Shown here in pieces: positions 37,493-43,081 of a stretch of DNA of 64,000 bases. Every line of letters begins with the position of its first letter. Within the stretch, counting starts at the first letter, position 1. Where the stretch lies: the NCBI RefSeq assembly GCF_024223415.1, contig NZ_CP100500.1. The stretch is one strand, 5' to 3'. The stretch comes from Escherichia coli (lineage in GTDB: Bacteria; Pseudomonadota; Gammaproteobacteria; Enterobacterales; Enterobacteriaceae). Under the pieces are notes generated by a model that was not told where the DNA came from, did no database searches, and was given only the letters and a program-made list of their open reading frames with translations. A program made the translations under genes and the position numbers.

Positions 37493-37580
37493 GGTGAGGT
37501 GTCCGAGTGGCTGAAGGAGCACGCCTGGAAAGTGTGTATACGGCAACGTATCGGGGGTTCGAATCCCCCCCTCACCGCCA
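37493..37580 (+). tRNA. serW: tRNA-Ser (anticodon GGA)
   Basis: 88-nt GGTGAGGTGTCCGAGTGGCTGAAGGAGCACGCCTGGAAAGTGTG...GGTTCGAATCCCCCCCTCACCGCCA with long variable arm; downstream of infA as for serW. Confidence 0.93.
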
Positions 37581-37587
37581 GATATTG

Positions 37588-37622
37588 AGCGCATGTTATT
37601 GTTTAACATGCGCTTTTTTTAT
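37588..37622 (+). terminator. Intrinsic terminator after tRNA-Ser
   Basis: gagcgcatgtta ttg tttaacatgcgc followed by ttttttt. Confidence 0.6.
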
Positions 37623-37731: not shown

Positions 37732-38574
37732 CTATACTGCCAGCATGTCAGGATAGTGTCTGACGATAATATCATTCAGTCTGTCAACCAGTTCCGGTTT
37801 CCTGAACGTGATATGCGCGGAGCCTTTCCTGAAGTATCTGATGCTGAACATCTCATCCTCATAGCATGCTTCACCCTGAACGGACCGGATGTGCTCATCC
37901 AGACGAATGAGGATATTGTCCCGGTCAGTGGGTATGGGTTTACCGCTGAACAGATACAGTATCCTTTCCAGGTCGGCAAGCCGCCCGGCCTGCGGACCAT
38001 GGTTCAGACCAAATACCCACCAGTCCCATTTCACCAGGTTGTTGAGGATAATCTTACTGCCGAATTTACAGGGTGACCCGCTGTTGTGCGTCCGGCTCAG
38101 TCCTCTGAAGAGGTTGATGACGCCCCGTTCAGCCATTTCATCCCTGTTACGGTGCAGTTGTTCAGACGTACTCAGGATATTCGCTTCGCTGATTTCCGGA
38201 AAATTATCCTCCTCCAGTGAACGGTACCATTCATCACGCGCCTGTGCATCCATCAGACTCAGCATCCCGGAGCGTTGCATCAGGTCACGCCAGATTTCAC
38301 GGTCAAGGTTCCGGGTGATGGCTTTCATTGCGGTTTCCGGTTTTTCCATCAGCCAGCAGCCACAGCGAAAATCCTGTTTCACGGCCCAGTCCCGGGCCGT
38401 TTTACCTCCGATGCTTTCTGTCATTACTGAGATTTCTGCCAGTTGCCGGATAAGCCTTTCGGTTTGTTGCAGTGCTTCATTCCGTACCGTCACAACGTGC
38501 CGGATACTGGTTGAGCAGATAACGTCCGTATGTCCGTTAAGCGTTTCCGGACGGGAGACTGTGATATCAGACAT
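37732..38574 (-). CDS. Hypothetical island protein (280 aa), possibly DUF4942-type
   Basis: Long ORF at the tRNA-proximal end of the island; family assignment from memory only. Confidence 0.4.
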   Translation of the reverse strand: MSDITVSRPETLNGHTDVICSTSIRHVVTVRNEALQQTERLIRQLAEISVMTESIGGKTARDWAVKQDFRCGCWLMEKPETAMKAITRNLDREIWRDLMQRSGMLSLMDAQARDEWYRSLEEDNFPEISEANILSTSEQLHRNRDEMAERGVINLFRGLSRTHNSGSPCKFGSKIILNNLVKWDWWVFGLNHGPQAGRLADLERILYLFSGKPIPTDRDNILIRLDEHIRSVQGEACYEDEMFSIRYFRKGSAHITFRKPELVDRLNDIIVRHYPDMLAV

Positions 38575-38670
38575 AACCGATATTCCTTTTTGCAGATAAA
38601 TGAAAACGCCAGCCGTATTCGGACTGGCGTCAGTGGAATGAATCGTGGTGAGTGAGATGATGAGTGAGAC

Positions 38671-38868
38671 TCACAGGTTCTGGTGCTGAAGCTGCAGCTG
38701 GCGCAGGGTGCGGATATCCTCCCTGGCCTGTTCGATACAGGGCAACAGTGCTGCCGAATCCGTTTTATCCTCATCGTTGTCGAAGATAATGCAGGAGCCG
38801 CAGTCGATATTGTCCTGCAGCCACGCAATCAGAATATCCGGTGCTGTTTCTGTGGTTAATGATTTCAT
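38671..38868 (-). CDS. Hypothetical small protein (65 aa)
   Basis: ATG at 38868; Cys-containing acidic protein MKSLTTETAPDILIAWLQDNIDCGSCIIFDNDEDK. Confidence 0.3.
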   Translation of the reverse strand: MKSLTTETAPDILIAWLQDNIDCGSCIIFDNDEDKTDSAALLPCIEQAREDIRTLRQLQLQHQNL

Positions 38869-38887
38869 ACGGTGTCTTTTGTCCCGG

Positions 38888-39376
38888 TTACCAGTCGAAA
38901 GTGGGAAAACCCGGCAGACATTCAGCGCCGGCATCCAGATGAATGAGACTGACGCCATAACGCCGGATGAGAGTGACAACCAGACGACGAAACGTTTTTG
39001 ACAGACCCAGGCGTTTAAGCCGCAGAGCCGGGTACGACCACGCATCAGTACGTAACAGATATCCGCTGCCTGTAAAATGAATCCATTCTGATTCGCCGTT
39101 GTCATTCGTCTGATGCGACAGCGAGTACAGCCAGGCATTGTCCTGCTCCGTGATATGTGCGGTACTGCAGCGTATGCCGGTAAGGGCCGCAAATGGTGGC
39201 ATGCAGTCTGCTGAGGTCCGGTCAGATTCATCAGCAACACGAAGGGAACAGCCATTATCGCAGACCACGTTAATCAGTTCAGCGAGATTAACACCATCGA
39301 CGTCAGCGACAATGCGCCCCATGTTCAGTGCCTGTACGTTAACGCTGTCGGCTTCCAGTGTCAGGGACAGTTTCAT
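38888..39376 (-). CDS. Hypothetical protein (162 aa) translationally coupled to cbtA (YeeW-position)
   Basis: Start overlaps cbtA stop (ATGA). Confidence 0.35.
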
Positions 39377-39750
39377 GGTTTCACCTCACAGTGTTTACCC
39401 AGGGTGATGTTGTTCACCATTCTGTAGTGGCTGCGGGTCATCAGGCCGGTCGCCCGGCGGGCCCGGAGAATATCAATGCTGCTGATTAACTGCGATGAAG
39501 CTCCTGCGCTGAATCCCGGCTGGTCGGTACGCACCAGCGCGTATTTTTCCACAAGAAAGTTCACCGCATCACACAGTGAAATACCCGCCTCAATATGCTG
39601 CTCAATCACACGTTCATCGGCGAACGGTGTGTCATTCAGCGTGAGGCCGTAGTGCTGGTCCAGCAGCCGGGTGAGCAGTGTCTGCCAGATTTCAACCGGA
39701 GACGGGCAGCGCGATGTTGCCCGTACGTGTGTGTCGGGGAATGTTTTCAT
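39373..39750 (-). CDS. cbtA: CbtA/YeeV-family cytoskeleton-binding toxin
   Basis: 125 aa from ATG 39750; [66 protein letters not shown] matches YeeV/CbtA family. Confidence 0.75.
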
Positions 39751-39808: not shown

Positions 39809-40174
39809 TCAGGGTGTTGCCGGTGTCGGATAAATGGCGATATACACGTAACCACAACTGCCGAGGGTGTCGGCATCGCAGGTCAGCCCTTTCGCATACA
39901 GTGTCACGGTATGCTGATGGCGGGGACTGAGTTCACCGCTGGTGAGCATGAGTTCCAGCTGTTTCATCAGCAGCGGAAAGGCCTGGTCCAGGTGGTACGC
40001 ATCTGCGTCGCTGAACCGGCCTCTGATACCGGCGCGGTCTGCAAGGTAATGCAGGCGGTTACCCTCCTGCACCAGACGGGCACCAAAACAGGGTGTCACG
40101 GTGCAGGGCAGTCCCCACTAGGGGCGGTCGCTGTTGTCGTCAGGATGCGTTGTCCCGGTGAGTGTGTCTGACAT
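39809..40174 (-). pseudogene. cbeA: CbeA/YeeU-family antitoxin interrupted by in-frame amber codon
   Basis: ATG 40174 (GAGGA upstream) reads MSDTLTGTTHPDDNSDRP then TAG (plus 40118-40120) where family has W; remainder GLPCTVTPCFGARLVQEGNRLHYLADRAG... is intact. Confidence 0.55.
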
Positions 40175-40224: not shown

Positions 40225-40881
40225 TCAGCCGGTGCGCAGACCGGCTTCGGTGAAGGTGTATCCGTTGATGAGAAGGGCCTCATCCACGGCGTCGTCTGAG
40301 GTCAGCCAGTCGTACTCGTTTTCCAGTTGACTGTATAACCAGAAGGCAAGGTCCCGCAGGGCGTCACAGACAACGGTTTCCGCGCTGGCTGTCATTGCCT
40401 GTCCGGTCGGACTGTCCCGGGTGACGGTGATATCCATGCTGTACGGATGGCAGTAGTGTCCCCGGTGGCGGATTTCAGCCTGAAGCTGCCGGAAGTTACG
40501 CTTCTGCACCGCCTGCAGGGCATCCGCGATACGATGAAGCTCACGGTCCTGCGGGGCATATTCCCTGATTTTCCGGGGTGCCGCTGGCTGCCAGCGCCAG
40601 CGTCCTTCAAAACAGGCTCCGTCCCCCTGGCTGCAGAATCCGCTGAACCAGATGCACGGCTCTTCCATAAACCTGCCGTTGCTGAGCCGGATAACACGCT
40701 GGCGGAGGGCAATCCCGACAATCTCACAGACCGTCCTGAAGTCCTCATACACGTTTTCATACCAGTTGCTGTCAGCATGATGCTGACGGTACCATTCACG
40801 GGCCTTCTCCCGTGCTGTGGCGGAAAGTTCATCCGGCGTATACACGGTGGTGATGATAATTCTGCTCATCCGCATCTCCAC
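40225..40881 (-). CDS. Hypothetical Cys/His-rich protein (218 aa) between yeeT-like and cbeA-like genes
   Basis: Intact ORF, ATG 5 bp after yeeT-like stop; motifs CIWFSGFCSQGDGACFEG and HRGHYCHPYSM. Confidence 0.45.
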   Translation of the reverse strand: MEMRMSRIIITTVYTPDELSATAREKAREWYRQHHADSNWYENVYEDFRTVCEIVGIALRQRVIRLSNGRFMEEPCIWFSGFCSQGDGACFEGRWRWQPAAPRKIREYAPQDRELHRIADALQAVQKRNFRQLQAEIRHRGHYCHPYSMDITVTRDSPTGQAMTASAETVVCDALRDLAFWLYSQLENEYDWLTSDDAVDEALLINGYTFTEAGLRTG

Positions 40882-40885
40882 TGAC

Positions 40886-41107
40886 TCAGTTCAGGGTGAC
40901 GCTCATCAGCCGGACATACGGGCCAAAACTGTCCTTCCGGCGTTCGGCAAACACGGCAAGCACACCGGGGATATCCTGCACTTCACGACCGGTATACGCT
41001 TCAGCACTGCCGTGCCAGCGGTATTTACCGGTACAGAACGGAAAAAGACGGGATGACGGATACTGACGGTGAACGCGCATGGCTTCACCACGGGTGATGA
41101 TTTTCAT
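40886..41107 (-). CDS. yeeT: YeeT/YpjJ-family protein (DUF987)
   Basis: 73 aa MKIITRGEAMRVHRQYPSSRLFPFCTGKYRWHGSAEAYTGREVQDIPGVLAVFAERRKDSFGPYVRLMSVTLN. Confidence 0.75.
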   Translation of the reverse strand: MKIITRGEAMRVHRQYPSSRLFPFCTGKYRWHGSAEAYTGREVQDIPGVLAVFAERRKDSFGPYVRLMSVTLN

Positions 41108-41196: not shown

Positions 41197-41673
41197 TTAA
41201 AGCAGACCGTGTTCCGCAAAGGAGAACACCCGGCTGCCACCGACTATCAGATGGTCCGGTACCCGGATATCCACCAGGGCCAGTGCCTGTACCAGACGTT
41301 CAGTGATAAGGCGGTCTGCCTTACCGGGTGTGACCTCACCGGACGGATGATTGTGCGCCAGCACCACGGCAGCGGCATTGTGGTACAGGGCGCGTTTAAC
41401 CACCTCCCGGGGATGCACTTCCGTGCGGTTGATGGTACCGGTGAAGAGGGTTTCACCGGCAATCAGCTGATTCTGGTTGTTCAGGTACAGCACCCGGAAC
41501 TCTTCCCGCTCCAGTCCCGCCATGTGCAGAATCAGCCATTCCCGTGCCGCATGCGTGGAGGTGAAGGCCACGCCGGGTTCATGAAGATGGCGGTCCAGGG
41601 TTTTCAGGGCCCGCTGAATGAGGCTGCGCTCGCCGGGCGTCATCGCGCCGGGCAGAAAGGAAATCTGTTGCAT
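41197..41673 (-). CDS. yeeS: RadC-like JAB/MPN domain protein (YeeS/YfjY family)
   Basis: JAMM motif HNHPSGEVTPGKADR; start ATG 41673 (MQQISF) with GAGG upstream. Confidence 0.7.
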   Translation of the reverse strand: MQQISFLPGAMTPGERSLIQRALKTLDRHLHEPGVAFTSTHAAREWLILHMAGLEREEFRVLYLNNQNQLIAGETLFTGTINRTEVHPREVVKRALYHNAAAVVLAHNHPSGEVTPGKADRLITERLVQALALVDIRVPDHLIVGGSRVFSFAEHGLL

Positions 41674-41684
41674 AACCTCACCCC

Positions 41685-42158
41685 TCAGTCGATGATGCGC
41701 ATAATGGCGCTGCATTCCGGATGCTGCAGGGCGTAATCCCGCAGCCGGTAATAATGGACCGTCATGGCATAATGCTCCGTACGGCAGGCGTGATGACTGT
41801 AGGCCATCAGGCAGGCGGCAATGCCGGCGGCTTCAGGGCTCATTTCCGCGCGGTTGCCGTTCATGGTGTTAAACAGTGCCCATGTTTCGTCATCATCGTC
41901 ACCCGGTTCGGGAGCCATAAATGCGCCGCCGTTGTTCAGGGTGTACATATTCCAGATACCCCCACTGTAGTCTTCACACAGACGGTCCATCCAGCCGAAG
42001 ATTCGGGGCTCAAGGGTCACCCACTGCGGAATGAGGCCAAAGTGCTGCGGCCAGAAGCTGATGCGCTGTTCGTCAGGCACTGGGCTGGCAACCAGCTGAG
42101 GTGGATTATTCCCGGATGCAGTGGTTGCGGAAACAGAGTCATGCGAAACCGTTTTCAT
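41685..42158 (-). CDS. Antirestriction-like protein (YfjX/YafX/KlcA family)
   Basis: 157 aa acidic protein in the conserved CP4-island position upstream of radC-like gene. Confidence 0.5.
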   Translation of the reverse strand: MKTVSHDSVSATTASGNNPPQLVASPVPDEQRISFWPQHFGLIPQWVTLEPRIFGWMDRLCEDYSGGIWNMYTLNNGGAFMAPEPGDDDDETWALFNTMNGNRAEMSPEAAGIAACLMAYSHHACRTEHYAMTVHYYRLRDYALQHPECSAIMRIID

Positions 42159-42262: not shown

Positions 42263-43081
42263 TCAGCGCATGCTCTCCAGCAGCGTTTCTGCCATCACCC
42301 ACAATGCGCGGTTGAGTTTTATATCGGTATCAATGCTGTGAATGGCCCGGGTATGGATACGTTTTCCTTTTGCACTGCGACCGGAAATCCCGCCTTTCAG
42401 CATATTCTCCTGGATGGTCTGATAAGCACTCCACAGGTCCTTACCGTAATCCTCCCGGCGTCGTGGTGTCAGAATGTCGGCGGTGGTGACGGGCTGATGT
42501 TCGTCACCATAACGGTAAGTCAGTGCCGCCTGTGCCAGCGCCTGGCGTGCCGGTGGCGGCAGGACCAGCGACTGCATGGCATCACGCTTCTCCTCTATCC
42601 GGTCAAACACGCCCACCACCTCGTAAGCCCCTTCAATGACTCTGTCCACCACATTTCCCCGGTGCGGAACACGCACTTCCCCCAGAGACTGACCGCAGAC
42701 GCATCCGTTCTGGCAGACGAACCTGAAGTAACCCGGCAGCATCTGGTAGCTGGAGGTACCGTCATGAGAGTTGAGCAGAATAATTTCAGGGACATGTTGT
42801 CCGTTTATCTCCCCGTCACGGCGCAGACGCAGCATGTGTTTGGTATACCCCCGGCGGCCCGGGTCCCGCACGCGGGTCTGGCAGGCAAAGAAGGGCTGAA
42901 AGCCTTCCCGCTGCAGGCTTTCCAGCACGGTAATGGTGGGGATGTATGTATAGTTCCGGCTCCGGGAGGTGTGCTTATCTTCCCCGAAAATCCCGGGCAC
43001 ATGGTGCATCAGTTCTTCATGTGTCAGCGGACGGTCACGGCGTATCTGGTTCGCATAACCAAAACGACTGGCTAATCGCAT
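42263..43081 (-). CDS. DUF932-family protein (YfjQ-like)
   Basis: 272 aa; N-terminus MRLASRFG...PLTHEELMHHVP and overall pattern recalled for YfjQ family. Confidence 0.5.
   Translation of the reverse strand: MRLASRFGYANQIRRDRPLTHEELMHHVPGIFGEDKHTSRSRNYTYIPTITVLESLQREGFQPFFACQTRVRDPGRRGYTKHMLRLRRDGEINGQHVPEIILLNSHDGTSSYQMLPGYFRFVCQNGCVCGQSLGEVRVPHRGNVVDRVIEGAYEVVGVFDRIEEKRDAMQSLVLPPPARQALAQAALTYRYGDEHQPVTTADILTPRRREDYGKDLWSAYQTIQENMLKGGISGRSAKGKRIHTRAIHSIDTDIKLNRALWVMAETLLESMR

Follow-up and report, generated by a model that had tools for sequence, protein, structure and literature searches.

Three gene families at the tRNA-proximal end of an Escherichia coli integrative island, tentatively read as establishment genes

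What do the three genes that lie between the toxin gene cbtA and a serine tRNA contribute to the integrative island that carries them? We addressed this question in a stretch of 64,000 nucleotides (nt) of Escherichia coli DNA (contig NZ_CP100500.1 of assembly GCF_024223415.1; "the window" means this whole stretch), in which the genes encode proteins of 162, 65 and 280 amino acids (aa) belonging to the families DUF5983, DUF957 and DUF4942. Our preferred reading, a tentative one, is that the island is mobilisable and that the trio serves its establishment or acts in an anti-defence manner. Such genes would act early after transfer of the island to a new cell and would help the incoming DNA to survive, most likely by countering host defences.

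Families, conservation and position of the three genes

The initial annotation, which was made from the sequence alone, had placed three open reading frames (ORFs) of these lengths between cbtA and the tRNA, and all three are found on the minus strand. The trio and its immediate surroundings comprise the following features.

38888..39376, minus strand: DUF5983 gene, full-length YeeW, 162 aa (Pfam PF25638 and PF19419)
about 39200-39367, minus strand: DUF5983 N domain, residues 4-59 (Pfam PF25638, E 1.5e-29)
38891-39172, minus strand: DUF5983 C domain, residues 69-162 (Pfam PF19419, E 2.1e-22)
39373..39376, minus strand: ATGA overlap of the cbtA stop and the DUF5983 start (direct reading of the sequence)
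38671..38868, minus strand: gene for a DUF957-type small acidic protein, 65 aa (RefSeq name of the identical protein)
38605..38631, minus strand: hairpin and T-run in the gap between DUF957 and DUF4942 (terminator scan)
37732..38574, minus strand: DUF4942 gene, 280 aa (Pfam PF13708, E 4.3e-60)
38071..38100, minus strand: site of the DUF4942 motif LSW(D/N)YKTNxP, LSRTHNSGSP in the window allele (column statistics, homologue and DNA alignments)
37493..37580, plus strand: tRNA-Ser(GGA), that is serW, the island integration site (ARAGORN, Rfam, and blastn against the K-12 serW region)

The proposed translational coupling of the 162-aa gene is borne out by its ATGA overlap with the cbtA stop codon, and the 65-aa protein is acidic and Cys-containing as described (isoelectric point (pI) 4.2, three Cys). 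The 280-aa protein had been called D/E-rich with a W-rich C-terminal half, and neither description holds: it has 41 D+E against 38 K+R residues (pI 6.3), and its seven Trp are split 4/3 across the halves. The genes had further been described as uncharacterised and free of any assignable motif. The first part stands, but family assignment is possible through the Pfam models DUF5983_N, DUF5983 and DUF4942 and the RefSeq name DUF957.

The 162-aa protein scores 101.8 and 79.7 bits against Pfam DUF5983 model cut-offs of 27, and the 280-aa protein scores 203.1 bits against the DUF4942 cut-off of 25 and covers profile positions 1-190 of 190. A protein identical to the 65-aa product (WP_001349630.1) is named DUF957 in RefSeq, and plasmid homologues bear the same name; in current Pfam-A it hits no model, even when E values up to 10 are allowed. 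None of the three proteins matched NCBIfam, and PHROGs returned families of unknown function plus one 'DNA methyltransferase' family that reflects fused phage proteins. Sequence searches of the PDB were uninformative, whether run with single sequences or with a profile of 99 members, and Rfam on the window gave the tRNA only.

All three genes are annotated under these family names in thousands of genomes. The 1.8-kb stretch that holds them is matched in 4921 of 5426 complete E. coli genomes, at a median of 3 places per genome, which puts the three families among the commonest unexplained genes of E. coli (about 91% of complete genomes, often multicopy). For comparison we used 80 loci from other Enterobacterales, the only order that the scan for relatives yielded. 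Among Enterobacterales orthologues, the median pairwise ratio of non-synonymous to synonymous substitution rates (dN/dS) is 0.155 for DUF5983 (28 sequences), 0.207 for DUF957 (18 sequences) and 0.106 for DUF4942 (73 sequences), next to 0.191 for cbtA. DUF5983, DUF957 and DUF4942 are real genes under purifying selection, beyond chance ORFs. The initial observation is real, correctly placed and correctly called uncharacterised, and it concerns genes that are ubiquitous and already catalogued.

On its chromosomal side, the window runs through cydD, cydC, aat and infA to tRNA-Ser(GGA) and then into the island. Because homology to the K-12 serW region ends at about 37583 (blastn), the island starts at the 3' end of this tRNA. 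We read the element as a CP4/TAI-type integrative island, with the trio at its tRNA-proximal end. The DUF4942 stop codon and the tRNA are separated by a 151-nt spacer, similar to that at tRNA-Asp-adjacent island ends of other genera (L009, L013, L056 and L058). Nine of 60 scanned loci have a tRNA about 90-150 nt past DUF4942, and since this tRNA varies (for Met, Asp or Arg at those loci and for Ser in the window), DUF4942 marks the island end at any integration site. Strain MS 119-7 carries the same island at serX, and strain 673 carries it at serW. TAI islands are located at serW/serX as well.

Plasmid leading regions and the establishment reading

The evidence for an establishment role comes largely from conjugative plasmids, whose leading region is the DNA that reaches the recipient first. 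Homologues of DUF4942 (about 33-36% identity) are carried by at least 5000 plasmids, at least 4531 of them conjugative, those of the DUF5983 C domain by 2666 plasmids (2185 conjugative), and those of DUF957 by 1339 plasmids (1224 conjugative; the one inspected is IncHI2). The gene order on an IncI-gamma/K1 plasmid is ssb, DUF905, parB, psiB, psiA, ardA, further genes, DUF4942, a small opposite-strand ORF and nikA-nikB, with DUF4942 as the last co-oriented leading-region gene ahead of nikA-nikB. On pOXA-48, DUF4942 lies upstream of mobA-traI and is surrounded by a JAB/RadC-like gene, KlcA and ssb. Three plasmids were inspected for the DUF5983 C domain, one of them IncF (from Klebsiella) and two MOBP. 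In these, the leading region ends with DUF932 and/or the C domain ahead of the transfer genes, toward the oriT, traM or mobA side.

In ColIb/R64-type plasmids, leading-region genes are read toward the origin of transfer (oriT) because the transferred strand is the template. The terminal ~6 kb of the window island holds, in tRNA-ward order, DUF905, DUF932, ArdB, RadC, DUF987, CbeA, CbtA, DUF5983, DUF957 and DUF4942. As the plasmid homologues sit on the oriT side, we read this terminal block as assembled from leading-region families in one orientation toward the island end. By analogy, an oriT may lie beyond DUF4942, across the attachment (att) junction of the excised circle.

This view is consistent with published enrichment data. 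In supplementary file 3 of Samuel et al. 2024, family 72 (DUF5983; Aec77) has a p of 6.6e-199, a median position of 2 and strand 1, and family 24 has a median position of 1, also on strand 1; DUF905, DUF932/YubP and ArdB/KlcA are further leading-region-enriched families in that study. Leading regions are also enriched in toxin-antitoxin genes, and for this reason a leading-region role and an accessory role in a toxin-antitoxin system overlap. For islands, a preprint (10.64898/2026.01.13.699239) described TAI islands of O157:H7 that have an oriT and no relaxase, with defence and counter-defence genes clustered near island oriTs.

The same surroundings could be taken to mean that the trio is anti-phage defence cargo at an island end, as in other integrative islands. 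The mobile setting, the adjacent toxin-antitoxin pair and the clustering of defence and anti-defence genes near island oriTs noted in that preprint would fit such cargo, but PADLOC-DB, searched up to an E value of 1, has no defence-protein model that matches a member of the trio. Moreover, the neighbours are counter-defence rather than defence genes (ArdB/KlcA antirestriction), and the plasmid homologues lie in the T-strand-oriented leading region, a setting typical for anti-defence genes. We consider defence cargo very improbable.

An AlphaFold2 (AF2) model of DUF4942 built from a 99-sequence alignment of diverse representatives (predicted local distance difference test (pLDDT) 88.5, predicted template modelling score (pTM) 0.81) has a helical N-terminal half and a small alpha/beta C-terminal domain. 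No solved fold matched this confident model, Foldseek searches of the models against viral structures found family members only, and a Pfam scan of the 99 diverse members found no second domain. A methyltransferase identity was rejected, as the protein has no catalytic domain, no (D/N/S)PP(Y/F/W) motif and no Rossmann fold, and the database label 'restriction methylase' is unsupported on the same grounds. The source of this label is a set of fused relatives of 467-543 aa from phages and metagenomes, in which DUF4942 is followed by a C-terminal MTS-type methyltransferase. A K-12 remnant of the family was also sought in yoeF and rejected for want of a protein-level match.

Distant DUF4942 genes, mostly on short contigs, adjoin korA-incC-korB and a C5 methylase, or a primase and RadC. 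One of them, on an IncP-like metagenome contig (L087), stands in the order korA-incC-korB, distant DUF4942, a 126-aa unknown and a C5 cytosine DNA methylase, and is a second association of DUF4942 with DNA methylation, adjacent rather than fused. We suggest that island DUF4942 may correspond to the N-terminal part of phage orphan DNA methyltransferases, a module without catalytic function that here stands alone. Given such a non-catalytic, methyltransferase-associated nature, it would probably bind DNA or a component of a restriction-modification system without methylating.

Several results weigh against an establishment role. We found no functional literature on DUF5983, DUF957 or DUF4942, and fold searches with the structure models were informative nowhere. 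Samuel et al. 2024 found that these families resemble no known anti-restriction or anti-CRISPR protein in sequence or structure. No oriT was located in the window, where five plasmid oriT-proximal regions match at chance level only, and the cargo of the window island differs from that of TAI islands. The window DUF4942 may be inactive, with LSRTHNSGSP in place of the near-invariant LSW(D/N)YKTNxP, plus F137S, F148A and D216T. Finally, in a census of 81 island ends with DUF4942, DUF5983 and DUF957 are missing from about half, which makes these two dispensable.

If an establishment role is true, it bears on the spread of pathogenicity islands and resistance plasmids and on the possible blocking of that spread. 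Thousands of resistance plasmids carry these families, right at the transfer origin.

Coupling to cbtA and the toxin-antitoxin alternative

The DUF5983 gene is tied to cbtA by its position. Of 36 Enterobacterales loci, 34 retain an NTGA overlap between the two genes, in which the start codon is ATG, GTG or TTG, and a GGAG/GGGG-like stretch precedes the DUF5983 start at the cbtA-coupled loci. Across the 80 loci, the N domain occurs solely directly downstream of cbtA. In Serratia sp. DD3, the cbtA-coupled gene is an in-frame fusion of DUF5983_N and DUF957 (118-121 aa), and a separate DUF5983 C-domain gene lies between radC and cbeA. At least six island ends of this strain carry the fusion (L015-L018, L029 and L030), and cbtA is truncated in four of them. 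A further arrangement is seen at four loci of Yersinia and Serratia oryzae (L011, L012, L019 and L021), where a cbtA-like gene precedes a cbeA-like gene, the reverse of the usual antitoxin-then-toxin order; three of these four have a lone DUF5983 C-domain gene or fragment upstream of the pair.

These arrangements suggest that the N domain may serve as an adaptor produced in a fixed ratio with CbtA. As its partner module is either the C domain or DUF957, DUF5983 and DUF957 probably cooperate. The AF2 model of DUF5983 has a pLDDT of 81 overall and above 90 in the C domain, and no solved fold matched this confident C-domain model; a Glyoxalase/VOC fold was assigned to DUF5983 in bioRxiv 10.1101/2024.01.30.577995. 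Residues C70, S71, H74, D79, W98, H146, D148 and W162 are near-invariant, and the polar set among them (C70, S71, H74, D79, H146 and D148, all in the C domain) would be compatible with a site for a metal ion or a small molecule.

DUF957 is present at 25 of the 81 island ends, always alongside the N domain. It has its own ATG, with an AGG-type ribosome-binding site in most genera, and its reading frame relative to DUF5983 takes all three values across genera. A programmed frameshift joining DUF5983 and DUF957 was rejected because the relative frame varies by genus and DUF957 starts independently. We also rejected a zinc site in this protein, the second Cys of its CxxC not being conserved in the Serratia sequences.

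Downstream of DUF957, the hairpin found by the terminator scan has a 10-pair stem and a T-run. It is conserved across genera, with three pairs maintained via two-sided changes, and from its sequence we read it as a putative intrinsic terminator or attenuator. Since this hairpin separates DUF957 from DUF4942, the layout would be a unit of cbeA-cbtA, optionally extended by DUF5983 and DUF957, followed by the terminator and finally by DUF4942.

An alternative reading follows this layout closely: DUF5983 with DUF957 would be a further part of the CbtA/CbeA type IV system (a second antitoxin, a toxin chaperone or a modulator that binds CbtA through the N domain), and DUF4942 unrelated cargo past the terminator. 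The conserved overlap with cbtA across genera (the Serratia fusions included), the exclusive position of the N domain, and the conserved terminator that parts the unit from DUF4942 all speak for it, as does a large E. coli toxin-antitoxin survey with a recurrent CbtA_toxin/DUF5983 pair in which DUF5983 is always downstream. However, cbtA stands without DUF5983 or DUF957 at 32 of the 81 island ends, against 20 that have all parts, so that co-occurrence is not obligatory. K-12 retains only a 64-aa YeeW remnant, and its CbtA/CbeA pair works all the same. The C domain also occurs on its 2666 plasmids beside DUF932 and oriT, with cbtA not nearby. We regard this alternative as possible, though on the unlikely side. 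The conserved coupling nevertheless suggests that the CbtA/CbeA pair may be incomplete as described.

Both lines of thought could be joined. The N domain would then be a CbtA-docking adaptor for a swappable C domain or DUF957, giving a three- or four-part CbtA/CbeA system, and the island terminus would be a true leading region with oriT past the DUF4942/att end, with DUF4942 as the first protein in the new host. Derived from methyltransferases and devoid of a catalytic domain, DUF4942 could bind DNA or an enzyme and so be a new type of restriction blocker. This combination seems to us improbable.

State of the window copy and comparison with known systems

The remaining features at this end of the island are listed below.

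39373..39750, minus strand: cbtA toxin gene, intact (Pfam CbtA_toxin, E 1.6e-59)
39809..40174, minus strand: cbeA antitoxin gene with TAG at codon 19, 40118-40120 (Pfam CbeA_antitoxin, E 3.6e-50 on the 96-aa remainder)
40225..40881, minus strand: 218-aa ORF in the interval between DUF987 and cbeA (ORF list)
40886..41107, minus strand: DUF987 (ORF list, RefSeq annotation of a near-identical island)
41197..41673, minus strand: radC (ORF list, RefSeq annotation of a near-identical island)
41685..42158, minus strand: ArdB/KlcA-type antirestriction gene (ORF list, RefSeq annotation of a near-identical island)
42263..43081, minus strand: DUF932 (Pfam DUF932, E 6.1e-52)
37587..37615, plus strand: tRNA-Ser-adjacent hairpin with T-run, on the island side of the junction

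The last of these is a strong hairpin just past the tRNA. Because it lies on the island side and K-12 homology has already ended, the tRNA-Ser terminator is apparently supplied by the island. The 218-aa ORF has no Pfam match and matches phrog_5162 (unknown function); it is an optional insert, present in some related islands only. Among the compared loci, two contigs labelled Chryseobacterium sp. 18061 (L039 and L058) are enterobacterial-type island ends. L058 shares its layout with L056, a contig of Citrobacter sp. 18056, down to two tRNA-Asp genes at identical positions, and both Chryseobacterium contigs look like assembly contamination or mislabelling.

The window itself holds nothing unusual, and its local copies look partly degraded. 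The DUF4942 residues W161, Y163, K164, T165 and N166, each present in 84-94% of the 99 diverse members, are absent from the window allele, whereas the five invariant residues W95, G151, D201, H254 and N267 are kept. About 11 substitutions fall inside 21 nt at 38071-38100 (minus strand), and further clustered changes occur elsewhere in the gene; recombination or relaxed selection may have produced such clusters. A compensated frameshift behind the lost motif was rejected, as the DNA alignment has substitutions only. Codon 19 of cbeA reads TAG in the window and TGG in strain MS 119-7 (L001), whose copy is 99% identical, and in the window a second early stop cuts the final four residues; the adjoining cbtA is intact. 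A GTG restart in cbeA would give a 96-aa product that still spans the Pfam domain. From these sequences, the window copy may be partly inactive.

The trio could accordingly be seen as decaying passengers, with intact ORFs of which at least DUF4942, together with the neighbouring toxin-antitoxin pair, no longer works in the window island. In line with this, the loss of the SW-YKTN motif and the three substitutions is common to just 3 of 102 close homologues, the dN/dS of the window DUF4942 against other copies is 0.18-0.27 (family median 0.106), and cbeA has its early stop. Loss of one copy would also be tolerable because genomes carry a median of 3. Yet the three ORFs are full length without a frameshift, the window DUF5983 and DUF957 keep the residues conserved in their families, the allele is maintained in 8 genomes at 99.7-99.9% identity over the stretch, and selection clearly acts on the families overall. 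We judge this passenger reading unlikely.

The trio can finally be set beside four known systems. The first is CP4-44 of K-12, where YeeW occupies the same slot straight after cbtA with the same start/stop overlap and is 67% identical to residues 5-55 of the window protein. K-12 YeeW is a 64-aa remnant with the N domain only, in contrast to the two-domain, 162-aa window gene, and it is followed by a DUF957 remnant and no DUF4942. The initial annotation had assigned the trio to the slot where CP4 islands carry yeeW, and this was correct: as K-12 yeeW covers residues 5-55 only, the window gene is the full-length YeeW.

The second is the small domain of AntiFam entry ANF00264, which was described (10.64898/2026.06.09.728211) as lying after or fused to DUF5983 beside cbtA-cbeA and was argued to be a real protein, with a confident predicted homodimer and a suggested programmed frameshift. 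Its place after DUF5983 and near cbtA-cbeA fits the 65-aa gene, and ANF00264 is probably DUF957, a former Pfam family. At the loci analysed here, however, the gene comes with an ATG and a ribosome-binding site of its own, and the fusions are in-frame DUF5983_N-DUF957 proteins without the C domain.

The third system comprises phage orphan DNA methyltransferases, such as gp22 of Pseudomonas phage phiPSA1 and gp33 of Aeromonas phage 2_D05, which contain a DUF4942 module (about 25-26% identity, residues 75-278). These proteins are 531-543 aa long and have an MTS-type domain, whereas island DUF4942 has no such domain.

The fourth system consists of the plasmid DUF4942 proteins, which belong to the same Pfam family and are 33-36% identical over 94-95% of the length of the island protein. 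The island gene differs in being chromosomal and behind a toxin-antitoxin pair, with no known oriT alongside, and its window allele lacks LSW(D/N)YKTNxP. Both proteins are standalone and about 265-290 aa long, and each is encoded by the last co-oriented gene before a boundary, which is oriT for plasmid DUF4942 and the att/tRNA end for island DUF4942.

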